Source of the DNA: Bacilli bacterium
GTDB taxonomy: Bacteria; Bacillota_I; Bacilli_A; RF39; UBA660
Reading direction: 5' to 3'
Assembly (NCBI GenBank): GCA_028694645.1
Contig: JAQVKM010000004.1
Coordinates: 79,365-143,364, forward strand
Length of the DNA stretch: 64,000 bases
Shown: positions 1 to 20,591 of the stretch, piece by piece
How positions within the stretch are numbered: the first letter of the stretch is position 1
Layout: every line of letters starts with the position of its first letter
Position numbers and translations under genes: made by a program
Notes under the pieces: generated by a model
The model's database searches: none
What the model saw: the letters and a program-made list of their open reading frames with translations, nothing else
Told to the model about the DNA's origin: nothing

Positions 1-1172
1 AAACTGGAGAAATTAATTTAGTTAGTGGAAAAACAATTAGAATCGTAAAAGAAGAAGTTTTAGGAAATGAAGAAAGAATATCTGTAAATCATCCTCAAGC
101 CGTAGCTTCATTACAAGTTGGAAATGTTGTATTACTTGAAAACGGGTTAATGAGCATTAAAGTTATATCAAAAGAAGAAGATGGTGTAACTTGTGAAATA
201 ATTAATGGTGGAGTTTTAGGAAACAAAAAAAGTTTAAGTGCTCCTGGTGTCAAATTAGATATTCCATTTGTTAGTGAACAAGATAAAGAAGATATTATTT
301 ATGCTTGTGAACATGAAGGAGATTTTATTGCACTATCATTTGTATCATCAGTAGAAGACTTACATGATGCAAAAAAAATAATTAATGAATGTAATAGTGA
401 TATCAAAATAGTTTCAAAAATTGAAAGCACAACAGGAATTGAAAATATTGATTCAATAATAGCAGAATCAGATGGTATTATGGTAGCTCGTGGAGATTTA
501 GGTGTAGAAGCTCCTATGGAAGAATTACCATATTTACAAAAAATGATTATTAAAAAATGTCGTGAACAAGGTAAATTTTGTATTGTTGCAACAGAAATGT
601 TAGAATCAATGAAAAAAAATGCTAGACCTACAAGAGCAGAAGTATCAGATATTTCAAATGCCGTTATGGATGGAACTGATGCAGTTATGTTAAGTGGAGA
701 AACAACAATGGGAAAATTCCCAATTGAAACCGTTAAATTTATGGCTGATATTTGTGAAAGTACAGAAAAATATTTAGAATATGCAATAAATATTAATAAT
801 GTTAAAAAAGATGTTGTTGGAGCTATAGCTAATAGTGTAGTAGAAGCTGCAAATTTATTAGATGCTAAATTAATAGTAGCAGCTACAATGAGTGGAGCAA
901 CAGCTAGATTGATTAGTAATTTAAAACCAAAATGTCCAATTTTAGCAACATGTACTGAAAGTAAAGTAGCTCGTTCTTTAGCTCTAAATTGGGGAGTATA
1001 CCCAGTTATAACAAAAGCTTATGAATCAACAGATGAAATAATAACAGATGGAAAAGAAAAAGCTAATAATTTTGTTAAATTAGAAAAAGAAGATGTTTTA
1101 TTAATAACAGGTGGATTTGTTACTACAGAAGATGCTAAAATTACAAATTTCATGAAAATTGAAAAAATATAA
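1..1172 (+). CDS. pyk: pyruvate kinase, C-terminal ~390 aa (5' end lies upstream of window)
   Basis: ORF is open in-frame from the window edge. Motifs MVARGDLGVE and DGTDAVMLSGETT match the PK barrel and C-terminal domain. Confidence 0.9.
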   Translation, partial: TGEINLVSGKTIRIVKEEVLGNEERISVNHPQAVASLQVGNVVLLENGLMSIKVISKEEDGVTCEIINGGVLGNKKSLSAPGVKLDIPFVSEQDKEDIIYACEHEGDFIALSFVSSVEDLHDAKKIINECNSDIKIVSKIESTTGIENIDSIIAESDGIMVARGDLGVEAPMEELPYLQKMIIKKCREQGKFCIVATEMLESMKKNARPTRAEVSDISNAVMDGTDAVMLSGETTMGKFPIETVKFMADICESTEKYLEYAININNVKKDVVGAIANSVVEAANLLDAKLIVAATMSGATARLISNLKPKCPILATCTESKVARSLALNWGVYPVITKAYESTDEIITDGKEKANNFVKLEKEDVLLITGGFVTTEDAKITNFMKIEKI

Positions 1173-1245
1173 TATAATATTAAAAAAGCTTTTATAAAAA
1201 GCTTTTTTTTGATAAAATATATATGTATATGAAAGGAATGATTAA

Positions 1246-3741
1246 ATGAAATTTTTTACTAAAATATTTGATCATGAATATAAAGAATTAGAAAAATTTA
1301 AAAAAATAGCAGATCAAGTAATGGAATTAGAATCAGTAATTGCAAAATTAACTGATCAAGAATTAAAAGAAAAAACAGAAGAATTTAGAAATAGATTAAA
1401 AAATGGGGAAACATTAGAAGATATCAAAGTAGAAGCTTTTGCCGTAGCTAGAGAAGCAGCTTATCGCGTAATAGGAGAAAAACCGTATTATGTTCAAATA
1501 TTAGGTGGACTTGCGATTCACTATGGTAATATAGCTGAAATGAAAACAGGTGAAGGAAAAACTTTGACTGCAACCATGCCAGCTTATTTAAATTCTTTAA
1601 CTGGACTTGGAGTTCATATAATAACAGTAAATGAGTATCTTGCTGGAAGAGATGCTTCTTGGATGGGAGAAATTTATCGTTTTTTAGGATTAACAGTTGG
1701 AATTAATTATAGAGAAAACACTCATAGCGAAAAAAGATTAGCATATGAATGTGATATCATGTATACAACAAATAACGAATTAGGATTTGATTATTTAAGA
1801 GATAACATGGTTGTTAAAGCAGCAGATAGAGTTCAAAGAAAATTAAACTTTGTTATAATTGATGAGGTTGATTCAGTTTTAATTGATGAAGCAAGAACAC
1901 CGCTTATTATATCAGGAGGACATGTTGAATCAGCTAATCTATATTTAGAAGCAGATCGTTTTGCTAAATCATTAAAAGAAAATGATGGATATATATATGA
2001 TGAAAAAACAAAATCTGTAACCTTAGATGATAAAGGAATTAAAGAAGGAGAAAAATTCTTTAAATTAAACAATCTATATGATATAAATAACACTAATTTA
2101 GTACATTATATTAATCAAGCTTTAAAAGCAAATTATGCTATGAAAGCCGATGTTGATTATGTAGTACAAGATAATAAAATAGTTATTGTTGATCAATTTA
2201 CTGGGCGTTTAATGGCAGGAAGAAATTTCTCAGAAGGATTACATCAAGCTATTGAAGCTAAAGAAGAAGTAACAATTCAAAGAGAAACTAAAACTTTAGC
2301 AACAATAACATTCCAAAATTTATTTAGAATGTATAATAAATTATCAGGTATGACAGGAACTGCAAAAACAGAAGAAGAAGAATTTAGAGAAATATATAAT
2401 ATGTATGTTATACAAATTCCTACAAACAAACCTGTTATTAGAAGTGACTATGGAGATTTAGTATTTGCTACTAAAAAAGGTAAATATAAAGCTATAGTTG
2501 AAGAAATAAAAGAAAAACATGCTAAAGGACAACCAGTATTAGTAGGTACTATAGCTGTTGAAACAAGTGAATTAATAAGTTCCTTGTTAAAAAAAGAACA
2601 CATTCCACATGAAGTATTGAATGCTAAAAATAATGCTAGAGAAGCAGAAATTATAGCTAAAGCTGGTGATAAAGGTGCAGTAACAATTGCAACAAACATG
2701 GCTGGACGTGGAACAGATATTAAGCTAACAGATGAAATTAAAGCTCTTGGAGGGCTTTGCGTTATTGGGACTGAAAGACATGAATCAAGACGTATTGATA
2801 ATCAATTAAGAGGACGTTCAGGTCGTCAAGGAGATCCAGGTTATTCACAATTCTGTGTATCATTTGAAGATGAATTAATGGTTCGTTTTGGAACAGATAG
2901 AGCTAAATCTTTATTAGCAAGAGCTGGATTTGGAGAAGACGCTTCAATTAGAGTTGGAATGTTGACTAAATCAATTGAATCAGCACAAAAAAGAGTTGAA
3001 GGTAATAATTTTGATATTCGTAAAACTTTATTACAATATGATGATGTTATTAATAATCAAAGAGAATATATTTATGATATTAGAAATCAAATATTAGATT
3101 CTGATTCAATTCATGAAAAAGTATTAGAAAATATGAATAACTTTATTAAACAATTAGTTGATAGTCATATTATGCCAGAAGGATATTTAACAGATAATGA
3201 TTTATCTGAGATAATTGAATTTACAAATGAAAATTTACTTAGAAAAAATCAACTAAGAATTGAGCAAATTAACAATAAATCTTCAGAAGAAGTTTCTCAA
3301 ATTATTTTTGAAATAGTAGTTGAGGAGTATAATGAAAAATTAAGTCAAATTCCTCAAGAAATAGCTAATGAATTTGAAAAAGCTATAACATTAAGAGTGA
3401 TTGATACACATTGGATGAATCACATTAATACAATGTCTCATTTAAGAGAAGGTATTGGACTTAGAAGTTATGCACAAGAAAATCCTCTTCGTGCCTATAC
3501 TACTGAAGGATTTCAATTATATGATGATTTATTAAATACAATTGATAAAGAAGTTACAATTTATTTGGTTAAATCTGAAATAAGACAAAATATTGAAAGA
3601 AAACAAGTAATAAAAGGAGAAGCTGTTATAGATAGTAATAAAACAAAAAAAGCATCACCTAAGAAAGTAGAAAAAGTAGGAAGAAATGAATTGTGTCCAT
3701 GTGGCTCAGGGAAAAAATATAAACAATGTTGTGGTAAATAA
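1246..3741 (+). CDS. secA: preprotein translocase ATPase SecA
   Basis: 831 aa with Walker A MKTGEGKT, DEVD helicase box and a C-terminal zinc finger CPCGSGKKYKQCCGK. Confidence 0.95.
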   Translation: MKFFTKIFDHEYKELEKFKKIADQVMELESVIAKLTDQELKEKTEEFRNRLKNGETLEDIKVEAFAVAREAAYRVIGEKPYYVQILGGLAIHYGNIAEMKTGEGKTLTATMPAYLNSLTGLGVHIITVNEYLAGRDASWMGEIYRFLGLTVGINYRENTHSEKRLAYECDIMYTTNNELGFDYLRDNMVVKAADRVQRKLNFVIIDEVDSVLIDEARTPLIISGGHVESANLYLEADRFAKSLKENDGYIYDEKTKSVTLDDKGIKEGEKFFKLNNLYDINNTNLVHYINQALKANYAMKADVDYVVQDNKIVIVDQFTGRLMAGRNFSEGLHQAIEAKEEVTIQRETKTLATITFQNLFRMYNKLSGMTGTAKTEEEEFREIYNMYVIQIPTNKPVIRSDYGDLVFATKKGKYKAIVEEIKEKHAKGQPVLVGTIAVETSELISSLLKKEHIPHEVLNAKNNAREAEIIAKAGDKGAVTIATNMAGRGTDIKLTDEIKALGGLCVIGTERHESRRIDNQLRGRSGRQGDPGYSQFCVSFEDELMVRFGTDRAKSLLARAGFGEDASIRVGMLTKSIESAQKRVEGNNFDIRKTLLQYDDVINNQREYIYDIRNQILDSDSIHEKVLENMNNFIKQLVDSHIMPEGYLTDNDLSEIIEFTNENLLRKNQLRIEQINNKSSEEVSQIIFEIVVEEYNEKLSQIPQEIANEFEKAITLRVIDTHWMNHINTMSHLREGIGLRSYAQENPLRAYTTEGFQLYDDLLNTIDKEVTIYLVKSEIRQNIERKQVIKGEAVIDSNKTKKASPKKVEKVGRNELCPCGSGKKYKQCCGK

Positions 3742-3786
3742 CTCGCAAACTCCGATAAAATAAGGGGAAACGCGAGTTTTTCTTTT
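3699..3786 (+). repeat. 88-bp direct repeat copy 1 (secA last 13 codons plus terminator)
   Basis: Identical base-for-base to 4641..4728. Confidence 0.9.
3741..3786 (+). terminator. putative secA terminator (short stem ACTCGC..GCGAGT plus T-run)
   Basis: Inverted repeat followed by TTTTTCTTTT. The stem is short with a long loop. Confidence 0.4.
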
Positions 3787-3893
3787 TATCAAAAAATAGC
3801 TCAAAATAAGAGCTAGAGCCACTTTAGATACCTTTTTCCGTTATTTTTGAAAGATAAAAAATATGATATAATTATTTATAGGAGTTGATAATA

Positions 3894-4472
3894 ATGAAAA
3901 TGGAAACAGAAATTACTGTATTAGTTAAGAGTACTTATAATGACCTAAAAAAGGAATTAGAAAAGAATGGCTTTCAAATAAAGGAGGAATATGAATTAAG
4001 GGATGACTATATGATTAATAATGATATTGACTTATCAAAATTATCAAAATTAGAAATTCTTCAAAATTGTATTCTGGTTAGAGATATAGTTAATATAAAA
4101 AAAGAATTACTTTATAAATATAAAAAGTATGCTTCTAATGGAGATATATTAGAACAAGGTAAAGTAGAATGTCCTGTTACGGATATTGATAAAGCTGTCA
4201 AATTTATGGAATCAATAAATTATAAAAAAATATTTAATATATATGATAAATGCATAGTGTTTGCAAATAGAGAAACTGAGCTAGTAGTACAATTAGTAAA
4301 TAATAAATATATTTTTATAGAAATGGAATCTGAATGTGAACATATAGATAGAAAATATGAATCTGCTGAAGAATTAAAGAAAGATTTAAATAGGTATAAT
4401 TTACCAATTGATAATTCCAATTATTTTGTAAAAAAAGCTGAATTAATATTAAGTGAAACATTAAAAATATAG
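3894..4472 (+). CDS. CYTH-like (class IV adenylyl cyclase / triphosphate tunnel) domain protein, putative
   Basis: ~190 aa. N-terminal ETEITVLV resembles the CYTH EIERKFLV strand. AGGAG RBS 9 nt upstream. Lies between the two 88-bp repeats. Confidence 0.4.
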   Translation: MKMETEITVLVKSTYNDLKKELEKNGFQIKEEYELRDDYMINNDIDLSKLSKLEILQNCILVRDIVNIKKELLYKYKKYASNGDILEQGKVECPVTDIDKAVKFMESINYKKIFNIYDKCIVFANRETELVVQLVNNKYIFIEMESECEHIDRKYESAEELKKDLNRYNLPIDNSNYFVKKAELILSETLKI

Positions 4473-4640
4473 TCTTTGCTAAAAAATTTCGAAAAAGTAT
4501 TAAAAGAGTATTTTAGATACCTTTTTAGATACCTTCTGGTCAAACTCTGGGGTGCTGTCGGAAGCTACCAAGTGCATTCAATAGCCCAAAAGAGCTACAA
4601 AATACTCTCAAGAACTCCCAAAAACCCCAAATTACAAGCT

Positions 4641-4728
4641 ATGTGGCTCAGGGAAAAAATATAAACAATGTTGTGGTAAATAACTCGCAAACTCCGATAA
4701 AATAAGGGGAAACGCGAGTTTTTCTTTT
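4641..4728 (+). repeat. 88-bp direct repeat copy 2 (relic secA 3' end LCGSGKKYKQCCGK* plus terminator)
   Basis: Identical to 3699..3786. The two copies diverge immediately outside. Confidence 0.9.
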
Positions 4729-4865
4729 GTGATAAAATATCTAAAAAATGACTTTAGATCCATTTAAGATCCACTAATTTAAAATAGGTAAAATAAGGGA
4801 AGATTTAAGTATAATAATAAAAAACAGTAATTTCATGTTATAATTATATATAGTAGAGGTGGGCA

Positions 4866-6068
4866 ATGATGGAAATAAAAGAAGTTTTATTAAATATTGA
4901 TGGGATGAATGAAAGATTTGCAACATTAATTTTAAAATATATAGATGCATATATAAATATGAGTAGTAATAAAGCAGTTGTTGCAAATAATATCGTGCAA
5001 CAAATAAAAAGAAATGTTACTGGAATAAGATTTAAAAGTTTAGATGGCGTTAGTGGTGCAGTTAGTAATTTAGGTACGGTTATAACATTGGATGATACAT
5101 TAGATGAAAGAAATCTAGACAATACTTTTTTACACGAATTTACTCATCTAATTTCTAGAAATGAATATATGGATGATAATGAGTTGATACAACCTAATTG
5201 TGGTTTTAAAGTTGGTCAAGATGATAGAATGGACTTTACTGCAGGCTTTAGATTGACGCAATGGGAAATTGATGGTAATAACTATGCTTATAATAAAGGA
5301 ATTGAAACTTTCGATGAATGGGTGACAGAGTGGTTAGCTAATAAAATGTCAGGTTTTCAAAATGTTGAAGTAAAAGAAGATGCTAATGGATTCTTTAGAA
5401 AAAAAATAAGTCATGGATATGATGGCTCAAATGTTATGAATTTATTAGAACTTGTTTATGGTAGTGGAAATATAGCTTATTTGATAACAGGATTTGATTT
5501 AACAGAAGAAGAAAGGAAGTCTGTTATTCCAATAAAAGAAATACACAAATTGAATCAGATGATTGATAGTGAATCAATATTGACTGAAGAAGAAAAAGAT
5601 ATATTTAAAAATCTTCAACCACCATATATGAAAACACCTAATATAACAGGGTTAATAACTTATTATATTTCTGAATATCAAAAACAAAATGACTTACAAG
5701 ACTATAATTTATATTTGCAAAAAATGCAAAATGTTTTAGTAAGAGCTTATAGCGTTAGCTTTGCTAACAGGATAAATGAATGTAATAGTATGAATGATTT
5801 AAGAAACATTTATAGAGATTTATCTATTATACAAAATTCAATGATTTGGACTGAGGATTTAAATAAGTTAACCTCTTTAGAAACTTTCCAAATATTTGAA
5901 AAAATGAAACAAGACTTTTCTTCTAGAACAACTATGTTAAATGCTAATATGGAAGAATTTTCAAGTTTATATTTATCTCCTTCTCAATTATTAGAAAAGT
6001 TTAGAAACGAAGAAACAAAAGTTCAAAGATTAAGTCAAACAAATGTAGAAACAGCACAGAAAAAATAA
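4866..6068 (+). CDS. hypothetical protein with HExxH zinc-metallopeptidase motif
   Basis: 400-aa ORF with GGTGGG RBS. HEFTHLISRNEYMDDNE contains HExxH plus a downstream Glu. Confidence 0.55.
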   Translation: MMEIKEVLLNIDGMNERFATLILKYIDAYINMSSNKAVVANNIVQQIKRNVTGIRFKSLDGVSGAVSNLGTVITLDDTLDERNLDNTFLHEFTHLISRNEYMDDNELIQPNCGFKVGQDDRMDFTAGFRLTQWEIDGNNYAYNKGIETFDEWVTEWLANKMSGFQNVEVKEDANGFFRKKISHGYDGSNVMNLLELVYGSGNIAYLITGFDLTEEERKSVIPIKEIHKLNQMIDSESILTEEEKDIFKNLQPPYMKTPNITGLITYYISEYQKQNDLQDYNLYLQKMQNVLVRAYSVSFANRINECNSMNDLRNIYRDLSIIQNSMIWTEDLNKLTSLETFQIFEKMKQDFSSRTTMLNANMEEFSSLYLSPSQLLEKFRNEETKVQRLSQTNVETAQKK

Positions 6069-6083
6069 AATAGTGGAGGTATT

Positions 6084-6518
6084 ATGGAATTATATAAAGG
6101 TAAGAATTGGAATGTTATTTTTGGAGATTGGTGTCAAGATCATCCGGGATATTGTATTATTGGTAATAATAAAGAATCATTAAGCGAATTAACTGCTGAA
6201 GATTGGGTAGAATTAGGGCAATTAGAAAAAGAGTTAGAAAGAGTATGTAAGAAAGTATTCGGAGCAACAATGTTTAATTTTTGTTGTTTAATGAATAATG
6301 CTTATAGAGATAAAGAAAAACCAAAAGTTCATTATCACTTTGTGCCAAGATATAAAAACGAATTAAAATTATTTGGAAAAGTATATAAAGATAGGCATTT
6401 TGGTTATAATTTTTGGAAATGGAATTTAAGTAAATTTAAATGTCAAAAAGACCCTTATACTCAAGAGGAAAGATTAAAAATATTTGAAATAATGAAAGAA
6501 GAATTTAATTTAAAATAA
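6084..6518 (+). CDS. HIT-like / nucleotide hydrolase-transferase superfamily protein, putative
   Basis: 144 aa. HYHFVPR resembles the histidine-triad motif. GGAGG RBS. Confidence 0.4.
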   Translation: MELYKGKNWNVIFGDWCQDHPGYCIIGNNKESLSELTAEDWVELGQLEKELERVCKKVFGATMFNFCCLMNNAYRDKEKPKVHYHFVPRYKNELKLFGKVYKDRHFGYNFWKWNLSKFKCQKDPYTQEERLKIFEIMKEEFNLK

Positions 6519-6536
6519 CATTAGGAGAGTGATTTA

Positions 6537-6705
6537 ATGACTACAATATATTTTATAAGGCATTCAGCACCTTTTGTTGAAATTGATAATTATCAAGATT
6601 ATGAAAATGTTTTATGGTCTGAATACAATAGAAATATGATTTTATCTGTAAAAGGGGAAGATGGATCTCTATCAAGTTTTCAGACACGTTTTTCTGACGA
6701 AATCA
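6537..6705 (+). pseudogene. small ORF interrupted by IS insertion (N-terminal fragment; C-terminal remnant ~7881..8063 in same frame)
   Basis: ORF runs into the IS inverted repeat at ~6681. The same frame reopens after the IS and ends at 8063. N-term IYFIRHS is reminiscent of a histidine-phosphatase RHG motif, but the total length is only ~100 aa. Confidence 0.35.
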
Positions 6706-7623
6706 TTAAGCTAAAGATAGCAAATAATTATTATACTTCTCATTAGGAGTCATATAATCTATTTTACTATGTATTCTTGTGTTATTGTACCAACTTTCAA
6801 TAAAATTAAACAATATAAGTTTTGTATTTTCTAAATTATCATAGCTACTTAAATTTACTTCTTCTTTTTTTAATATGGCATTGAAGCTTTCCATACTAGC
6901 ATTATCGTAGGGATAACCTTTTTTACTGTATGAATGTTTTATATTCAATATTTCTAACATTTCTTCAAGTCTGATAGATGTATATTGACTACCTCTATCA
7001 GAATGTAATATGCAATCATTTTCTCTATCTCTATTAATTACAGCTCTACTAAGAGCTGTAATAACAAGATAAGTATCTATTTTTTTGCCATATGTCCAAC
7101 CAATAACCTTTAAATCAAATAAATCAATAATCACAGCTAAGTATGTCCAACCTTGTTCTTTTGTATAAATATACGTTATATCTGAAACACATTTTAATCC
7201 TGGTTTATCCGCAGTAAATTCTTGGTTTAATAAGTTAGGATAATCTTTATTAATATTAGGACTTTTACTATTATGAGGTCTAAATTTTCTATTAATAATA
7301 CTTCTTATTCCAAGAAGTTTCATTCTTTTAGAAACTCTATTTTGACATGCTTTAATTCCTTTTTTCTTTAACAAAAAAGTTATTTTAGGTGCACCATATC
7401 TATTTTTAGAATTTTTATATATTTCTTTTATTTCTTCATCTAATATCTTATTGGCTTCTTTATACATATTAGTTTGATGGTTTATATGATAATAATAAAC
7501 TGATCTATTTACTTCTAAACATTTACATAAAAGTTTAATAGAATAAATTTCTTTATTTCTGTCTATAAATTTAAGTTTATCTTCTAATCTTTCGAGAATA
7601 TGGCGACTGCTTTTTTTAATATT
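6706..7623 (-). CDS. IS3-family transposase OrfB (DDE integrase core); frame open to 7623, first ATG at 7467
   Basis: Motifs LHSDRGSQYTS and YDNASMESFN. The upstream in-frame extension reads IKKSSRHILERL. Confidence 0.8.
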   Translation of the reverse strand, partial: NIKKSSRHILERLEDKLKFIDRNKEIYSIKLLCKCLEVNRSVYYYHINHQTNMYKEANKILDEEIKEIYKNSKNRYGAPKITFLLKKKGIKACQNRVSKRMKLLGIRSIINRKFRPHNSKSPNINKDYPNLLNQEFTADKPGLKCVSDITYIYTKEQGWTYLAVIIDLFDLKVIGWTYGKKIDTYLVITALSRAVINRDRENDCILHSDRGSQYTSIRLEEMLEILNIKHSYSKKGYPYDNASMESFNAILKKEEVNLSSYDNLENTKLILFNFIESWYNNTRIHSKIDYMTPNEKYNNYLLSLA

Positions 7624-7855
7624 TCATTTTCCAATTGAACTTTCTTAAGTTCTTTTTTAATTTATCAACTTCATCATTGGTAGTATTTTTACCTGATGGA
7701 GTAGTGATTTTTTGATATTTATTAATCCAATTTGTAATTGTACTATGTCCTACGCCATATTCTCTTTCAAGTTCACTTATTGTTTTTCCATTCTCGTATA
7801 ATTTTACTATAGTCCTTATATATTCTTCATCAAACTTATTATAACTTCTTGTCAT
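7616..7855 (-). CDS. IS3-family transposase OrfA (HTH); apparently truncated
   Basis: HTH region GKTISELEREYGVGHSTITNW. Ends at TAA immediately before an A7 run. Confidence 0.75.
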   Translation of the reverse strand: MTRSYNKFDEEYIRTIVKLYENGKTISELEREYGVGHSTITNWINKYQKITTPSGKNTTNDEVDKLKKNLRKFNWKMKY

Positions 7856-8181
7856 AGAACACCTTCCTTTTTCTAAGTAATATTATTATATCACTTCGTC
7901 AGATTTTTGTGTCCTAATACCTATTATAGATCCAAAAATAGATTCATTAGAAAAAGCAAAAAATGCTCCATGTATTTTTAATAACTGGGCTAACTTCTAT
8001 AAAGGTGAATTTGTTTCAAATACAATTTTAAATGCAAATTCATTTGATAAATTAATTAAATAAAAAATTACAATTTGTAAAATAGCCTAGATAACTTTTT
8101 AGATACAAATATTTGAAAACGAGTTATAAAATTGATATAATATAAATCAAATATAAATAGAAATTTGGCGGGAGATAATTT

Positions 8182-8433
8182 ATGGAAGATAAATTAATAT
8201 TACTTAATAATATTGATAAAGTACATACTACAAAAATGGGTATTAATAGAATTAAGAAAAATCTTGAATTAGATAGTAATGATGTCATTGAATACTGTAA
8301 AAATAAAGTTTTAGATAAAGGTTGCAATATATATAAAAAAGGAAAAAATTGGTATTGTGAAATCGATAATACAAAGATAACAATCAATTCATATAGCTAT
8401 ACAATTATAACAGCACATAAATTTAAAGGGTAA
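8182..8433 (+). CDS. DUF3781 family protein
   Basis: 83 aa. NIDKVHTTKMGINRIKKNL...KGKNWYCE...SYTIITAHK matches my recollection of the DUF3781 pattern. Confidence 0.55.
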   Translation: MEDKLILLNNIDKVHTTKMGINRIKKNLELDSNDVIEYCKNKVLDKGCNIYKKGKNWYCEIDNTKITINSYSYTIITAHKFKG

Positions 8434-8508
8434 AAATAAGATATTTTAAAATAAATTTTACATTATTATTTATTATTACATGATATAATGTAGCTAGGAG
8501 ATGATAGT

Positions 8509-8922
8509 ATGGGCAATAGAATGAACAAAGAAGAATTAATTGAATTGATTAAGACTTTAAAAATCGATAAAGAAGAATTTTGGGTTATATCTTCTGGAGC
8601 TTTAGTTTTAAGAGACATCTTTCCAAATGCTGGTGACTTAGATATAGCGGTTACAAACAAAGGTTTAGAACAATTAAAAAACAATTATAATTTAATTTTG
8701 AAAGATAATGGTTTTTACATTGTAAATGAAATGGTTGAATGTGTTTGTAATGGTGAAAAACAAAATTTACAATATCAGCCAGAAAAGGCAGGAGACTATT
8801 ATGTTCAAAATATAAATGAATATTTAAACTATTTGAAATCAAGTTCTAGAGAAAAAGATAAATCGAGAATTCCAATTGTTGAAGCATATATTGAAGAACA
8901 AAAAATAACTTATAATAAATAA
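8509..8922 (+). CDS. nucleotidyltransferase-fold protein, Lnu/LinA-like (possible lincosamide/aminoglycoside nucleotidyltransferase)
   Basis: 137 aa. FWVISSGALVLRDIFPNAGDLDIAV resembles the LnuA/LnuC FWVDGGWAVD...HDIDI motif. Confidence 0.45.
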   Translation: MGNRMNKEELIELIKTLKIDKEEFWVISSGALVLRDIFPNAGDLDIAVTNKGLEQLKNNYNLILKDNGFYIVNEMVECVCNGEKQNLQYQPEKAGDYYVQNINEYLNYLKSSSREKDKSRIPIVEAYIEEQKITYNK

Positions 8923-8930
8923 AATGAAAT

Positions 8931-8970
8931 AACTCGCAAACCAATATAAATAAAAGGCGTGCGAGTTTTA
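8931..8970 (+). terminator. putative terminator (ACTCGCA..TGCGAGT plus T-run)
   Basis: Same AACTCGCAAAC stem start as the secA terminator. Confidence 0.4.
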
Positions 8971-9075
8971 ATTTTATATATTGATATTTTATAAAAAATA
9001 TTAAGTAGATAAAATTAGCATACTTTACTAAATTACATTTTTAATATATAATTTGGTTATGAGGTTGTGATATTT

Positions 9076-10311
9076 ATGCCAGCATGCAAAACACATGAAG
9101 CAATAGCTAGAATAATAAACAAAGATTATAATATGGACGACATTTTATTAAGAGTTGGATCTGTTGCTCCTGATTGTTGGAGAAACGCAAAAGAATTTGG
9201 TTTTGAAGACAAATATTTAAGTCATTTTTGGGATTTTAGAAAATCAGGTATAGCAAATGATTATGATGAGTTTTATTTGAAATATTATAACGAAATAAAT
9301 AATCCATTTTATTTTGGATATTTATTACATTTAATCACTGATCAATATTGGAAAACTTATATTGATCCAAAATATGAAATAACGATAAATGGAATTAAAG
9401 GTTATAAATTAAGAGATGGAAGTTTTAAAGAAAATATAAAGGGAGAGTATTTTTATTATCATGATGATTCTATTTTACAGGTTCTTTTAGCTAATCATTT
9501 TGATTTAGGAGAATTACCAATTAATCAAGATGATTTAGCTAATTTTAAATGTAATATAGATGAATTAGATTTAACAGGGCTATTTGGAGAAAATTGTACA
9601 TTGGATTTTGCCAATAACTTTAAAAAACAAAAATTTAATGAAACATCACAAATTTTTGATTTAGACGTAGTTATAAAAGATCTATTCAAAACCTGCGATT
9701 TTATAAAAAAAGAGATAAAAAGACTTGAATTGATGAAAATTAAATATGATCAAAGCATTAAAATAGCTATTGATATAGATGATACAATGTTATCAACAAC
9801 GGAATTGCAAAGTTATTATGAGAATGTATTTCTAAATGAAAATCCTCAATACACAAGAAGTGATTTAGATTGGGGAAAAGAAGGATGTATTAAATTTTGG
9901 GATAAGTATAGGCCATTAATTGCATTTGGTAGTCCAAAAGAAAATGCAGATAAGGCTATAAAATGGTTTAAAGGAAAAGGCTATTTAACTGATGCATTAT
10001 CAGCTCGCCCGTTAAAAAATTATGCTCCATTAAAATCTGACTTAGTTCATCACTTGGATAAAAATGGATTATGCGTTGATCACATATATTTAGGATTTCA
10101 TTCAAAATCACAATTTTTAAAAGATCACAATTATGATATATTAATTGATAATGATATTAAAAATGTTGAACAAGCAAATTATGTAGGTGTAAGTGGCATT
10201 TTATATGGAGAATATAATCCAAATTATTTAGGATATCAAACGAATGATTGGGAAGAAATGCCTTTTTTAGTCCAAAAAATCATTAATAATAAAATAAAAC
10301 AATTGCAATGA
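9076..10311 (+). CDS. two-domain protein: N-terminal metal-dependent hydrolase-like domain fused to C-terminal HAD-family (5'-nucleotidase-like) domain
   Basis: C-terminal half has the HAD motif I AIDIDDTM. N-half has His/Asp clusters (HLITDQYW). GAGG RBS 11 nt before the ATG at 9076. Confidence 0.5.
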   Translation: MPACKTHEAIARIINKDYNMDDILLRVGSVAPDCWRNAKEFGFEDKYLSHFWDFRKSGIANDYDEFYLKYYNEINNPFYFGYLLHLITDQYWKTYIDPKYEITINGIKGYKLRDGSFKENIKGEYFYYHDDSILQVLLANHFDLGELPINQDDLANFKCNIDELDLTGLFGENCTLDFANNFKKQKFNETSQIFDLDVVIKDLFKTCDFIKKEIKRLELMKIKYDQSIKIAIDIDDTMLSTTELQSYYENVFLNENPQYTRSDLDWGKEGCIKFWDKYRPLIAFGSPKENADKAIKWFKGKGYLTDALSARPLKNYAPLKSDLVHHLDKNGLCVDHIYLGFHSKSQFLKDHNYDILIDNDIKNVEQANYVGVSGILYGEYNPNYLGYQTNDWEEMPFLVQKIINNKIKQLQ

Positions 10312-10378
10312 TATTAAATATTAAGTATAATAAGAGCAATTAGAAAAAATATAGTGATTATAGAAAGTAGGTATAAAT

Positions 10379-10840
10379 ATGGAAGGCCTTATATATAAAG
10401 AAGAAGACATATATAAAAAACTAAAAGAATTTAAATACAAATTTCCAATGACTGTTTGCTGGAGACTTAGAAAACATGCACAAATAATAGCTCTTCACTT
10501 AAATCCGGGAGAACATATAAAATATATATTTGCAGCTCAAAAAAATGATAACCCATTTGATATAATTTCAACATATGCTGTTGTTTTAACAAATAAAAGG
10601 ATTTTGTTAGCATCAAAAAGAATGTTGTTTGGATACTTTTTTACAGCTATTACACCAGATATGTTTAATGATATTGAAGTTAAAATGGGACTTATTTGGG
10701 GAAAAGTAGTTATAGATACAGTAAAAGAAGTTGTTACATTATCAAATATCCAAAGAGAAGCATTAGATGATATAGAAACAAATGTAACAGAATATATGAT
10801 GGATGAAAAACAAAAATATTTTGGAAAGAGTCGTTGTTGA
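10379..10840 (+). CDS. bacterial PH-domain (YokE/YdbT-like) protein, putative
   Basis: 153 aa. The pattern TNKRILLASKRMLFGYF...VKMGLIWGKVVIDT is typical of bPH_2. Confidence 0.4.
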   Translation: MEGLIYKEEDIYKKLKEFKYKFPMTVCWRLRKHAQIIALHLNPGEHIKYIFAAQKNDNPFDIISTYAVVLTNKRILLASKRMLFGYFFTAITPDMFNDIEVKMGLIWGKVVIDTVKEVVTLSNIQREALDDIETNVTEYMMDEKQKYFGKSRC

Positions 10841-10886
10841 TTCTTTTTTTTATGAAAATATGATATAATTTAGGCAAGGTGATATT

Positions 10887-11912
10887 ATGGAAAAGAAAAC
10901 AATATTAACAGGAATAAGACCAACTGGTAATTTGCACTTAGGTCATTACTTTGGTGCTGTAAAAAATTGGGTATTATTACAAGATGAATATGAGTCATAT
11001 ATTGAAATAGCTGATGTTCAAGGATTAACAGATAATTTTAACAATCCTGAAAAAGTAAAAATAAATGTTAAAGAATTAACTATGGATTTGCTAGCAGTTG
11101 GAATAAATCCTGATAAAGCAACACTTTTTATACAATCAATGATTCCAGAAATAGCAGAACTTACAATTTACTACTCAAATTTAGTAACAGTATCAAGACT
11201 TTTTCGTAATCCGACAGTTAAAACAGAAGTAAAGCAAAAAAAAGAATTGTTTGGAGAAAATGGAGAAAGTATTACATATGGTTTTCTTGGATATCCAGTA
11301 AGTCAAGCTGCCGATATCACAGCATTTAATGGGCAATTAGTTCCGGTAGGAGAAGATCAATTACCATTAATCGAACAATGTAGAGAAATAGTAAGAAAAT
11401 TTAATTCAATATATGGTGCAACATTAAATGAACCAGAAGCATTACTTAGCAAAAATGCTAGAATAAAAGGATTAGATGGAAATGAAAAAATGGGAAAAAG
11501 TTTAGGCAACGCTATTAATTTGATTGATAAAGAAGATGTGATTTCAAAAAAAATAATGAGTGCAGTAACAGATCCAAACAAAATTAAAAAAGATGATCCT
11601 GCTAATCCAGAAATTTGTATGGTATATTATTATCATAAATTAATGGAAAGTGAAAATATAGAAAATATATGTAGCGAATGTAAAAATGGTCTTAGAGGTT
11701 GTGTTGCATGTAAAAAAGAATTAATAAATGAAATGCTAGATTTTTTAAAACCAATTCAAGAAAAAAGAGAATATTATGAAAATAATCCAGAAATTGTAGA
11801 TCAAATATTAATTGATGGAACAAACAAAGCGAGAAACAAAGCTAAAAAAACGATAGAAGAAGTTAAAAACAATATGCGAATAAACTATTTTAAAAAAAGC
11901 AACATTTTATAA
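10887..11912 (+). CDS. trpS: tryptophanyl-tRNA synthetase with C-terminal Cys cluster
   Basis: Class I HIGH-like TGNLHLGH and KMSKS-like KMGKS. 341 aa. Confidence 0.9.
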   Translation: MEKKTILTGIRPTGNLHLGHYFGAVKNWVLLQDEYESYIEIADVQGLTDNFNNPEKVKINVKELTMDLLAVGINPDKATLFIQSMIPEIAELTIYYSNLVTVSRLFRNPTVKTEVKQKKELFGENGESITYGFLGYPVSQAADITAFNGQLVPVGEDQLPLIEQCREIVRKFNSIYGATLNEPEALLSKNARIKGLDGNEKMGKSLGNAINLIDKEDVISKKIMSAVTDPNKIKKDDPANPEICMVYYYHKLMESENIENICSECKNGLRGCVACKKELINEMLDFLKPIQEKREYYENNPEIVDQILIDGTNKARNKAKKTIEEVKNNMRINYFKKSNIL

Positions 11913-12078
11913 AAATGATTATATTTAAAATAAATATCAATATAATACCGACATTAATTTAAAAATATAATATAAATTGTAAAACAAAAATCAAATTTCT
12001 TACAATAAAATTATTTGATATTGAAAAAACAACAACAAATTTGATATAATGTTATAAGAATAAAAAGGAGCTGTAAAT

Positions 12079-12819
12079 ATGGAAAAAATTTTTGTGTATG
12101 ATGCAAGCGATAATAAAGTAGAAGTTGATCTTGTAAAATATTTTAAACATAAATATACTGAATATTTCATATATACGGTTCACGAAAAAGATGAAAAAGG
12201 TTATGTGAAATTATATGTTGTTAAAATAATGAAAGAATTAGGTATAACAGTAAGTCAAAATATTACAGAAGAAGATGATTGGAATTTATTGGAAAGCATA
12301 GTTAAACAAATGATAAAAGAAATAAAAAAAGATAAAATAAAATCATTTGTTGATTTAAATAGTGAAAAATTAAATAATATAAGAATTAAGAAAGCTCGCT
12401 TTTTTAAACTAGATCCTAAATTAGTAGAAATGTTAAATACAAATCAATTTGAAAAAGCCAATAAAGAAGAAACTGAAAAAATAATTAATGAAATGAAAAC
12501 AAATGATTTATTTGATAATCAAAATCAAGATTTTGAATTATTATATTTAAATATAAAAAAAGAAAAAGATACTTTGGATGTTGTGTTATCAAATATGTTA
12601 ATGAAATTAACAGAATATCGATTAAAATATGGAAGAATAGATATTAGTGAAAAAGAAATACCTAAAATAGAAATTAAAGATCTAAAAGAACCAATAAGTG
12701 AAGATGATTACGAAACTAAATATGTAAAAATAAAAAAAGAAAAAGAAGCGTTAGATGTTGTATTAGCCAATATGTTAATGCAATTAACAGAATATCGATT
12801 AAAATATGAAAATAAGTAA
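12079..12819 (+). CDS. hypothetical protein with internal 26-aa tandem repeat
   Basis: Extended -10 promoter plus AAAGGAG RBS. The unit IKKEK..LDVVL.NMLM.LTEYRLKY occurs twice. Confidence 0.6.
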   Translation: MEKIFVYDASDNKVEVDLVKYFKHKYTEYFIYTVHEKDEKGYVKLYVVKIMKELGITVSQNITEEDDWNLLESIVKQMIKEIKKDKIKSFVDLNSEKLNNIRIKKARFFKLDPKLVEMLNTNQFEKANKEETEKIINEMKTNDLFDNQNQDFELLYLNIKKEKDTLDVVLSNMLMKLTEYRLKYGRIDISEKEIPKIEIKDLKEPISEDDYETKYVKIKKEKEALDVVLANMLMQLTEYRLKYENK

Positions 12820-19215: not shown

Positions 19216-19292
19216 GGGCGATTAGCTCAGTTGGTTAGAGCACCTGCCTTACAAGCAGGGGGTCATAGGTTCGAGTCCTATATCGCCCACCA
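19216..19292 (+). tRNA. tRNA-Val(TAC)
   Basis: Cloverleaf with anticodon loop CTTACAA. CCA is encoded. Confidence 0.9.
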
Positions 19293-19296
19293 TTTT

Positions 19297-19372
<76 letters not shown>

Positions 19373-19379
19373 TTATTTT

Positions 19380-19463
19380 GGAAGGGTAGCGAAGAGGTTA
19401 AACGCGGCAGACTGTAAATCTGTTCCTTCGGGTTCGATGGTTCGAATCCATCTCCTTCCACCA
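19380..19463 (+). tRNA. tRNA-Tyr(GTA)
   Basis: Anticodon loop CTGTAAA. Long variable arm. CCA end. Confidence 0.9.
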
Positions 19464-19475
19464 TAATTTTTTTAT

Positions 19476-19551
19476 TGCCTCGTAGCCAAGTGGTAAGGCA
19501 CCACACTTTGACTGTGGCATTTCGCTAGTTCGAATCTAGCCGAGGCAGCCA
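19476..19551 (+). tRNA. tRNA-Gln(TTG)
   Basis: Anticodon loop CTTTGAC. CCA end. Confidence 0.85.
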
Positions 19552-19576
19552 TTTTGAAATATTTAAATAATAATAT

Positions 19577-19652
19577 GTCTCGTTAGCTCAGCCGGTAGAG
19601 CATCTGACTTTTAATCAGAGGGTCGTGAGTTCGAATCTCGCACGAGACACCA
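19577..19652 (+). tRNA. tRNA-Lys(TTT)
   Basis: Anticodon loop CTTTTAA. CCA end. Confidence 0.9.
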
Positions 19653-19655
19653 GAT

Positions 19656-19744
19656 GCCTGAGTGGCGAAATTGGTAGACGCACAGGACTTAAAATCCTGC
19701 GAGAGTCAAATCTCGTGCCGGTTCAAGTCCGGCCTTAGGCACCA
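19656..19744 (+). tRNA. tRNA-Leu(TAA)
   Basis: Anticodon loop CTTAAAA. Long variable arm. CCA end. Confidence 0.9.
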
Positions 19745-19756
19745 ATATGAATATAA

Positions 19757-19778
19757 TCGAACAAATATGTTCGGTTTT
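19757..19778 (+). terminator. terminator after first tRNA block
   Basis: CGAACAaatatgTTCG stem followed by GTTTT. Confidence 0.5.
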
Positions 19779-19832
19779 ATTTTGTTAATTTTAATAATGA
19801 ATAAAAAAAATATAAAAAATTAATAAAATCTA

Positions 19833-19861
19833 TTGAAAATATATAAAATAACTGATATAAT
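19833..19861 (+). promoter_or_regulatory. promoter TTGAAA-17-TATAAT (extended TGn) for second tRNA block
   Basis: Consensus hexamers ~45 nt upstream of tRNA-Ser. Confidence 0.55.
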
Positions 19862-19908
19862 CATATACGTACTCGTAAATCTTTATATTTTCGAGATTAC
19901 AATTATAT

Positions 19909-19997
19909 GGAGAAATACCCAAGTGGTTGAAGGGTCCGGTCTTGAAAACCGGTAGGTCGGAAACGGCGCTAGGGTTCGAATCCCTATTTCTCCGCCA
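19909..19997 (+). tRNA. tRNA-Ser(TGA)
   Basis: Anticodon loop CTTGAAA. Long variable arm. CCA end. Confidence 0.9.
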
Positions 19998-20005
19998 TCT
20001 AATAT

Positions 20006-20082
<77 letters not shown>

Positions 20083-20085
20083 AAT

Positions 20086-20161
20086 GGTCCCGTAGTGTAG
20101 CGGTTATCACGTCTGCCTGTCACGCAGAAGATCGCGAGTTCGATTCTCGTCGGGACCGCCA
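20086..20161 (+). tRNA. tRNA-Asp(GTC)
   Basis: Anticodon loop CTGTCAC. CCA end. Confidence 0.9.
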
Positions 20162-20170
20162 TTTATTTTT

Positions 20171-20246
20171 GGCTCTGTAGCTCAGTCGGTAGAGCAAGGG
20201 ACTGAAAATCCCTGTGTCGATGGTTCGATTCCATTCGGAGCCACCA
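20171..20246 (+). tRNA. tRNA-Phe(GAA)
   Basis: Anticodon loop CTGAAAA. CCA end. Confidence 0.9.
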
Positions 20247-20357
20247 TTTTATAAGAAAAGAACAATAAGTTCACTAAAAATATATTAAATAAGATTCCAA
20301 TAATGATTGTTGGTTTTTTTATTAAAAAAAATAAATTTAGAAAATTTTAAAAAAATA

Positions 20358-20386
20358 TTGCTAAAACAATAATATTGTGGTAATAT
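20358..20386 (+). promoter_or_regulatory. promoter TTGCTA-17-TAATAT with extended TG for tRNA-Arg/Pro
   Basis: Hexamers at the correct spacing ~40 nt upstream of tRNA-Arg. Confidence 0.5.
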
Positions 20387-20426
20387 TATACTTGTATTTG
20401 TTGAGTTTTCTCAACAATAAAGTATC

Positions 20427-20503
20427 GCGCTCGTAGCTCAGCTGGATAGAGTGTTTGGCTACGAACCAAAAGGTCAGGGGTTCGAATCCCTTCGAGCGCA
20501 CCA
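20427..20503 (+). tRNA. tRNA-Arg(ACG)
   Basis: Anticodon loop CTACGAA. CCA end. Confidence 0.9.
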
Positions 20504-20514
20504 TAATAATTTTT

Positions 20515-20591
20515 CGGGATGTGGCTCAACTTGGTAGAGCACTTGGTTTGGGACCAAGGGGTTGCAGGTTCAAATCCTGTCATCCCGACCA
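20515..20591 (+). tRNA. tRNA-Pro(TGG)
   Basis: Anticodon loop TTTGGGA. CCA end. Confidence 0.9.

Follow-up and report, generated by a model that had tools for sequence, protein, structure and literature searches.

Background

Cis-mobilizable elements (CIMEs) and elements of the ICESt1/ICESt3 type reside at the 3' end of fda in Streptococcus thermophilus, and their spread is described by the accretion-mobilization model. Staphylococcal cassette chromosome (SCC) and pseudo-SCC islands occupy the 3' end of rlmH (orfX) in staphylococci, where they employ large serine recombinases (Ccr) and are bounded by repeats of ~15-20 bp. Additionally, the tycheposons of Prochlorococcus rely on a tyrosine recombinase, use a small number of conserved genes as insertion sites and leave partial copies of the target behind; newcomers push older elements inward, and fragmented integrases together with partial targets mark the older events (bioRxiv 10.1101/2020.12.28.424599). 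Here we present a locus to be set beside these systems, located behind secA in a 64,000-nt stretch of contig JAQVKM010000004.1 of a Bacilli bacterium (hereafter the window, to which coordinates refer unless another locus is named). Two 88-bp copies of the secA 3' end enclose a cassette with a single gene. We interpret these copies as the attL- and attR-type junctions of a 942-bp integrase-less mobile cassette, inserted site-specifically at the 3' end of secA, and we assign to this reading a probability of roughly 0.8.

The repeat and the cassette it encloses

An earlier note on this DNA, made from the sequence alone, had described an exact 88-bp direct repeat flanking a one-gene cassette, and the repeat is real. 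Positions 3699-3786 and 4641-4728 are identical over 88/88 nucleotides with a start-to-start spacing of 942 (repeat search and direct reading), and the 64-kb window contains only these two copies. Two sub-patterns of the repeat likewise occur 2 times each in the window, while 0 are expected in shuffles. The features of the secA end and the cassette are the following.

1246-3741, + strand: secA, 831 amino acids (open reading frame (ORF) list), with its last 13 codons and stop inside repeat copy 1
3698-3704, + strand: CATGTGG, putative crossover (overlap) region at the left junction, within the P-C-G codons of the SecA zinc motif
3699-3786, + strand: repeat copy 1, probable attL-type junction, made of the secA-end mimic (3699-3741) and the terminator hairpin with its T-run (3740-3786)
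3813-3832, + strand: gene-proximal (P') arm box pair CTAGAGCC...TTTAGATACC, candidate sites of an arm-binding domain (alignments)
3864-3884, + strand: cassette expression signals, namely the extended -10 TGATATAAT (3864-3872) and the ribosome-binding site (RBS) AGGAG (3880-3884)
3894-4472, + strand: cargo gene, 192 amino acids, predicted triphosphate-tunnel-metalloenzyme / CYTH fold (AlphaFold, Foldseek)
4476-4640, + strand: distal (P) arm, with boxes TTTAGATACC at 4512-4521 and 4524-4533 followed by ~105 nt more, ending ...AAATTACAAGCT
4641-4646: right-junction counterpart of CATGTGG
4641-4728, + strand: repeat copy 2, probable attR-type junction, made of a displaced secA pseudo-end and a terminator and doubling as left end of the module that follows
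4753-4772, + strand: box pair TTTAGATCC / TTTAAGATCC of the next module (repeat family), with ORFs 4866-6068 and 6084-6518

The composition that the earlier note had given for the repeat fits the ORF coordinates and the folding. Copy 1 opens with a single base, continues with the 13 terminal codons of secA (CGSGKKYKQCCGK) and the stop, and closes with 45 nt, in which a hairpin (3740-3778, -13.4 kcal/mol, z = -2.8) precedes the T-run UUUUUCUUUU; a simple terminator scan missed this hairpin because of its long loop, and it was verified by folding. The cassette interior (3787-4640, 854 nt) comprises an extended -10 promoter and an RBS, which can be read directly in the sequence as had been claimed, a single ORF (3894-4472) and a 165-nt non-coding tail. 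A consensus promoter scan made no call at the cassette owing to a poor -35, and the signals were read by eye; both the extended -10 and the RBS are kept in all aligned copies of the cassette. Copy 2 preserves the pseudo C-terminus of SecA in frame (...L-CGSGKKYKQCCGK*), again in agreement with the first description. Target duplication by a transposon or insertion sequence was rejected as a reading: the cassette encodes no transposase, none of the repeats reported is an inverted repeat at its ends, and what is repeated is an 88-bp (generally 44-bp) coding mimic.

Concerning the distal arm, RNA folding gave nothing convincing (z = -0.8), and its GC-richer stretch of ~105 nt folds no better than shuffles. 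In an Rfam search of the window only the tRNA cluster scored, with no match for the repeat or the arms, and a small-RNA reading of the distal arm was dropped in the absence of an Rfam match and of a significant fold. The cluster comprises 12 tRNA genes on the + strand (19216-20588).

Recurrence and constant boundaries of the cassette

The exact 192-aa cargo protein is indexed in 230 blocks of the assembly collection and was found on 162 contigs. All ten places that were fetched have the cassette in the array behind secA, with different genes upstream and at varying points of the array: it directly follows secA itself, comes behind an HTH/TM2/Ltp module or a methylase-integrase-Fic block, or directly follows an excisionase-integrase pair. 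When seven contexts are compared, identity is 59-72% over the 700 nt of secA immediately before the site and 94-100% over the cassette body. At least six host lineages have this 0.94-kb unit, with both of its ends unchanged, as first, second or fifth member of the array. Its right end reads ...AAATTACAAGC(C/T)ATGTGG (...AAGCYATGTGG) in 8/8 contexts and divergence begins at the very next base; on the left, context-specific sequence ends at CATGTGG. From the constant right end and the left stop at CATGTGG it follows that the unit runs from one CATGTGG to the next, and a circularised cassette would accordingly be laid out as a single core between two arms. The distal arm is 96-98% identical in loci L082-L090 and is also found as the arm of other cassettes in L048, L081 and L084. 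The earlier note had proposed a site-specific insertion that regenerates the end of secA, and the proposal is upheld by the finding of one cassette, identically bounded, behind widely divergent secA genes, by related tyrosine integrases in the same arrays and by strains with and without an element inside one species (see below).

This constancy also bears on the idea that the cassette is the rest of a larger integrase-bearing island which eroded in place and has lost independent mobility, if it ever possessed it. Broken integrases and decayed junctions are common in the arrays, and the window itself has such remains at 8087-8106 and 8927-8969. However, the same unit with the same ends occurs in those lineages with differing neighbours on both sides, so that identical independent erosion is very unlikely, and both arms and both box pairs are intact; we consider a decayed remnant improbable.

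A phage or plasmid origin was rejected. The cassette found no match in phage records, and in plasmid records (NZ_CP149720.1, NZ_CP022984.1, NZ_LR134420.1) the only match of the region was a coding motif for SEC-C metal binding in other proteins. In IMG/VR there were no close relatives of the cargo or of the integrase described below. The SEC-C matches suggest that the DNA target of these elements also exists outside secA, where it could act as a secondary site.

Pseudo secA ends in related genomes

The window SecA carries the SecA Pfam domains and is a 100% match to one NCBI entry from a metagenome-assembled genome (MDD3453339.1, 'Bacilli bacterium'), whose contig also carries MDD3453340.1; the next-best SecA is 87% identical, and in the collection the window SecA lies on a single contig. 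For comparison we used the 80 closest secA loci of species-representative genomes, which are metagenome-assembled genomes of uncultured gut 'Bacilli', 'Tenericutes' or Mycoplasmatota-like bacteria. Extra secA ends, out of context and downstream of secA, are present in many genomes, with up to four per locus (repeat search of the loci). At least one internal copy occurs in 25/81 loci, amounting to 32 distinct copies. These have a sharp common left edge at C-A/T-TGTGG (CATGTGG) and are highly conserved with a 3-nt period, as in coding sequence, TCN/AGY serine switches included; the conservation stops exactly at the stop codon and there is none after it. The part copied in general is thus the stretch of 44 nt from which the SecA tail is restored. 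The window copies add to these 44 nt a terminator module, which belongs to one sub-family of units, and hence reach an identity of 88 nt.

Copies within one array usually differ at ~8/42 positions, the same as copies from different genomes, although identical core pairs are enriched within arrays (4/40 vs 0.9%). The 88/88 identity in the window is therefore unusual and indicates a recent event or local gene conversion. The earlier note had taken the perfect identity to suggest a recent event, which is plausible, while gene conversion or the collapse of near-identical repeats by an assembler would give the same picture. The second origin offered by the earlier note, a duplication-mediated capture, is not supported, given that flanking copies elsewhere mostly differ at ~8/42 positions, unlike a local duplication. 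It is likewise very improbable that a local tandem duplication or an assembly artefact made, or perfected, the 88-bp repeat. The perfect identity and the metagenome-assembled source speak for it, as graph assemblers can merge near-identical repeats; yet ten independent assemblies show the order of pseudo-end, cassette and pseudo-end, the two ends differ in most of them, unlike a fresh duplication or an assembler product, and the interior is a foreign, widely shared unit.

Integrases and within-species variation

Among the recurrent ORFs of the arrays are tyrosine integrases, 423-454 aa when intact and often fragmented, with Arm-DNA-bind_4, Phage_int_SAM_3 and Phage_integrase domains. Some are located just behind secA and others at the far end of an element beside an HTH_17 excisionase-like gene, and both kinds form one family with 38-69% identity. 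The cassette directly adjoins an excisionase-integrase pair in L085, as does a homologous cassette in L102, L105 and L106. Larger elements were also seen at the site: in L101 (1-4554) one carries an integrase, a Mob_Pre relaxase and a restriction-modification pair of the Bsp6I type; in L102, L106 (both 1-4482) and L085 (1-5515) an excisionase-like gene and an integrase are accompanied by other genes, which are DnaB-type helicases in the first two and SMC-like genes, dnd-associated genes and a PemK toxin in the third. Elements at the secA site further contain toxin, Fic, RhuM and DNA-modification genes. Such gene contents are typical of integrative mobilizable elements and defence islands.

Ten contigs with an identical SecA protein (P0161) share the genes upstream of secA and differ in what lies behind it. 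Specifically, in some secA is followed directly by a phosphodiesterase gene, in some an integrase element lies between the two, in one contig that element is accompanied by a further two-gene unit, and in others different sets of modules are present. The displaced far-end copy of L094 equals the resident secA end of L097 and L098 over 42/42 nt, and the functional end is a different synonymous version. In a second species, secA of L103 is followed by a CYTH homologue, while in L101, L102, L105 and L106 the two are separated by integrase elements, every one of which terminates in a secA-end copy. Furthermore, the last 42 nt of secA in L091-L100 (10452-10493) have a nucleotide diversity (pi) of 0.103 vs 0.004 for the rest of the gene, and all the changes are synonymous, including TCN<->AGY serine switches. 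Such a footprint of diversity is expected if the gene end is repeatedly replaced by element-borne copies.

Putative crossover position and arm boxes

On the basis of the common left edge, the constant cassette end and the comparison of L093 with L094, we infer an exchange at CATGTGG or immediately beside it, in which the left end of the unit carries the entire 42-nt mimic along. Loss of the preceding units would turn an internal copy into the functional end of secA, which fits its coding-type conservation.

The box TTTAGATACC occurs 3 times in the 64 kb, in the cassette arms only, where 0.19 occurrences are expected: one is in the pair past the terminator, which in the window is a hybrid of a GAGCC-type and a GATACC-type box, and two are at the start of the distal arm. 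Paired boxes on both arms recur in many cassettes, and the co-varying variants of the pair include AGATCC, GGAGCC and AGATACG. Beside left-end integrases, boxes TTTGTCCAC or TTGTCATC replace TTTAGATACC (L024, 8310-8380; L002, 8129-8200; L087, 11449-11520; L093, L094 and L096, 10494-10600), which suggests that several integrase/arm specificities share one core site. By analogy, the boxes and the arm-binding domain of the integrase would match the layout of a lambda-type attP, with the boxes as candidate arm sites.

Proposed mechanism and its alternatives

In the mechanism we propose, the incoming unit would consist, in order, of a 13-codon copy of the secA end with its stop, a terminator, a box arm, an extended -10 and RBS, one cargo gene and a box arm of ~165 nt ending ...AAGCYATGTGG, and its cassette-borne secA end would let SecA keep the zinc-binding tail. 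Recombination at or next to CATGTGG would be performed in trans by a tyrosine integrase of the family seen in the arrays of other genomes (Arm-DNA-binding, SAM-like and catalytic domains), for which the TTTAGATACC boxes are the likely arm-type sites. Insertion would displace the previous secA end downstream, giving rise to copy 2, and repeated insertions would build the array of modules between secA and the bPH/trpS genes. Since the cassette has no integrase, it most likely moves with a neighbouring element, and travel from cell to cell would most likely take place by co-excision with an integrase- or relaxase-bearing neighbour, through accretion and cis-mobilization as for CIMEs. The empty-site junction would then read ...GAATTGTGTCC-ATGTGG...TTTTCTTTT-GTGATAAAATATC, and the junction of the 942-bp circle ...AAATTACAAGCT-ATGTGG...TTTTCTTTT-TATCAAAAAATAGC.

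A further possibility, which we hold only tentatively, is that in these gut bacteria with small genomes the secA end works as a gene-capture platform, integron-like in its role and built of lambda-type parts. Here the self-expressing cassettes of ~1-2.5 kb, each with a complete attP (core, two box arms, coding mimic and terminator), would be inserted, excised and shuffled one by one through a dedicated integrase whose gene lies at another place in the genome, and would not merely hitch-hike with their neighbours.

Several observations weigh against the reading of the copies as junctions of a site-specifically inserted mobile cassette. Exact look-ups of SecA and of the next ORF recovered neither an empty site nor a second strain of the window's species, which is represented by one contig. 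No integrase of the family was detected in the 64-kb window (tblastn and the family hidden Markov model (HMM), six frames), and none was seen next to arms of the TTTAGATACC type, the integrases found having other boxes nearby. A pattern search of metagenome contigs of the Joint Genome Institute (JGI) did not reveal a circular or tandem cassette junction. The window derives from a metagenome-assembled genome, and the exact identity of the copies could partly be an assembly consensus. Moreover, the first 15-25 nt of the mimic are more variable among the copies of this cassette than the cassette body, the secA end of L091 looks recombinant, with an element-borne left half and the right half of the resident end, and the left end in the window (88 nt + 33 nt) resembles another cassette type and joins the canonical cassette within the box pair.

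Mosaic ends of this kind mean that homologous exchange or gene conversion between similar ends must also occur. Taken further, they invite the explanation that RecA-dependent recombination after transformation or transfer, acting through the secA end and the arms, does all the work with no site-specific recombinase; apart from the mosaic junctions of L091 and of the window, the enrichment of identical core pairs in arrays (4/40 vs 0.9%) points the same way. On the other hand, the sharp left edge CATGTGG is common to 32/32 internal copies, the ends of the cassette do not vary, the site is consistently associated with one integrase family, accompanied by excisionase-like genes, and there is no homology left of the edge, so that at least one side of each event is non-homologous. 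We thus regard exchange by homology as an unlikely sole cause, and retain site-specific insertion of a mobile cassette as the best explanation.

The cargo protein

The AlphaFold model of the cargo has a pLDDT (predicted local distance difference test) of 93.7, and Foldseek aligns it at a template-modelling (TM) score of 0.73-0.79 with triphosphate tunnel metalloenzymes (TTMs; 7nsd and relatives), including the TTM of S. acidocaldarius (E = 5e-10), and with class IV adenylate cyclases, with additional matches to thiamine triphosphatases. The modelled protein is predicted to have the triphosphate-tunnel (CYTH) fold with its eight-stranded tunnel. The designation 'CYTH-like' in the earlier note consequently stands as far as the fold is concerned, whereas family searches backed it weakly at most: there was no match in Pfam, and TIGR00318 (cyaB) gave a weak hit below the cut-off (E = 0.0019, 18 bits vs 58). 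A profile of the cargo homologues found no match in the PDB. The usual ExExK motif reads ExExT in this protein (E4-x-E6-x-T8), and T8 is invariant in 25 homologues.

The array between secA and trpS

The region downstream of the cassette includes the following features.

3787-10378, + strand: variable array from secA to the bPH gene (comparison with relatives)
6706-7855, - strand: insertion sequence of the IS3 family, with orfA at 7616-7855 (HTH_Tnp_1) and orfB at 6706-7467 (rve integrase core)
8087-8106, + strand: decayed box pair CTAGATAAC / TTTTTAGATAC, ahead of the DUF3781 gene (8182-8433)
8927-8969, + strand: decayed third end-plus-terminator module (AAATAACTCGCAAAC...GCGAGTTTT), after ORF 8509-8922
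10379-10840: bPH-domain gene, conserved anchor
10887-11912: trpS, conserved anchor

Homologues of window genes 10379-12819, including the bPH-domain protein and tryptophanyl-tRNA synthetase (TrpRS), are present in many of the 80 loci, and the cargo gene and its next neighbours were found within 6 kb in 0/80. The bPH/trpS homologues of relatives lie between ~0.1 kb (L030) and several kb behind secA with unrelated genes in between, and this varying spacing identifies 3787-10378 as a variable region between conserved anchors. Repeat copy 2 and the AGATCC boxes behind it constitute the left end of the next module, and this left end recurs as a junction inside the array of another species (L047). 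The box pair at 8087-8106 is likely an older cassette junction. ORFs of the arrays are oriented as secA in 185 cases (+ strand) and oppositely in 9 (- strand), in genomes where strand bias is strong anyway. The IS3-family element is situated within the variable array and may interrupt a gene, a 3' remnant of which is found at ~7916-8063.

On the other side of secA, a pyruvate kinase gene (1-1172) runs off the start of the window, its frame being open from base 3. Pyruvate kinase is beside secA in 0/80 related loci, which shows that the upstream side has also been rearranged between species.

Concerning other cargo, L048 (7702-9273) has a box-flanked cassette whose 523-aa ORF resembles a class I aminoacyl-tRNA synthetase (by eye only), and a class II synthetase (tRNA-synt_2b) is found in the arrays of L097 and L098; the array also abuts trpS. 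Such extra synthetase copies as array cargo may merit a look.

Significance and comparison with known systems

The 3' end of secA, DNA for a conserved zinc-binding tail, is a shared landing site for mobile DNA in abundant uncultured gut bacteria. An essential gene tolerates insertion there because each incoming unit supplies synonymous last 13 codons and a terminator. Synonymous diversity in the final 42 nt is raised 25-fold as a result, a signature that could reveal such a hot spot from population data alone. The tiny triphosphate-tunnel cassette is nearly unchanged across hosts whose secA genes differ by 30-40%, suggesting strong selection, efficient transfer or both. As a sequence handle, the secA site could be used for cataloguing flexible genes in metagenomes, for seeking the servicing integrase and possibly for targeted gene delivery into bacteria that so far resist cultivation and engineering. 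A literature search on secA as an integration target, of incomplete coverage and hence weak evidence of novelty, returned nothing relevant, and the sole co-occurrence concerned SecA2 as cargo and not as a target site. The target, the host group and the recurrent design of a self-expressing mini-cassette with a 13-codon mimic and terminator appear to be undescribed, while the recombination mechanism is conventional, that of classical 3'-end integrative elements which bring a replacement end.

Integrons are similar in that small, mostly one-gene, co-oriented cassettes devoid of a recombinase collect at one site. They differ from the arrays described here, which have no adjoining IntI-type integrase and no imperfect palindrome of the attC type, and which combine a coding-mimic site and own promoters with direct-repeat arms of the lambda type. 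An integron was rejected as a reading of the window: the array starts at secA, no family integrase is in the window, the repeat is codon-periodic, the distal arm shows no fold (z = -0.8) and the cassette has its own promoter. With lambda attP the cassette would share a short core (the CATGTGG region) between two arms of direct-repeat boxes, ~280 bp once circularised, and an integrase with an N-terminal arm-binding domain. Here, in contrast to lambda, the box sequences vary between cassette families (TTTAGATACC, AGATCC, GGAGCC, TTTGTCCAC) and are candidate sites.

SCC islands also use the 3' end of an essential gene as a single att site, have units bounded by gene-end repeats and mix recombinase-bearing with recombinase-less units that are movable in trans. 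At secA, by contrast, the integrases are tyrosine integrases with arm-binding domains and the gene-end copy is 44 nt long (88 nt in the window). The tycheposons show the same stacking, partial targets and broken integrases, and combine cargo with replication modules (compare the DnaB-type helicases of L102 and L106); however, they target tRNA genes and carry their own integrase, whereas an in-frame protein-coding end is used here and many units are integrase-less.

Of the traits of integrative elements, the cassette has flanking direct repeats, of which copy 1 restores an in-frame secA 3' end, and it recurs with the same target and ends in unrelated genomes; it has no integrase of its own, the sole gene encoding the 192-aa CYTH-fold protein. 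As in CIMEs, it is free of recombination and transfer genes, and its junctions share the core of integrase-bearing elements in relatives. The likeness to CIMEs extends to att sites related to those of integrase-bearing elements, to the 3' end of a housekeeping gene as the target, to the tandem arrangement with integrative elements and to co-excision as a route. The differences are the target secA, the uncultured, Mycoplasmatota-like gut Bacilli as hosts, a far smaller size (one gene, 0.94 kb), the own promoter and terminator, the 13-codon mimic, the stacking of several mini-cassettes and a mobility that is deduced from comparison. By analogy with the described systems, the cassette is best read as a CIME-like, integrase-less element at the 3' end of secA.

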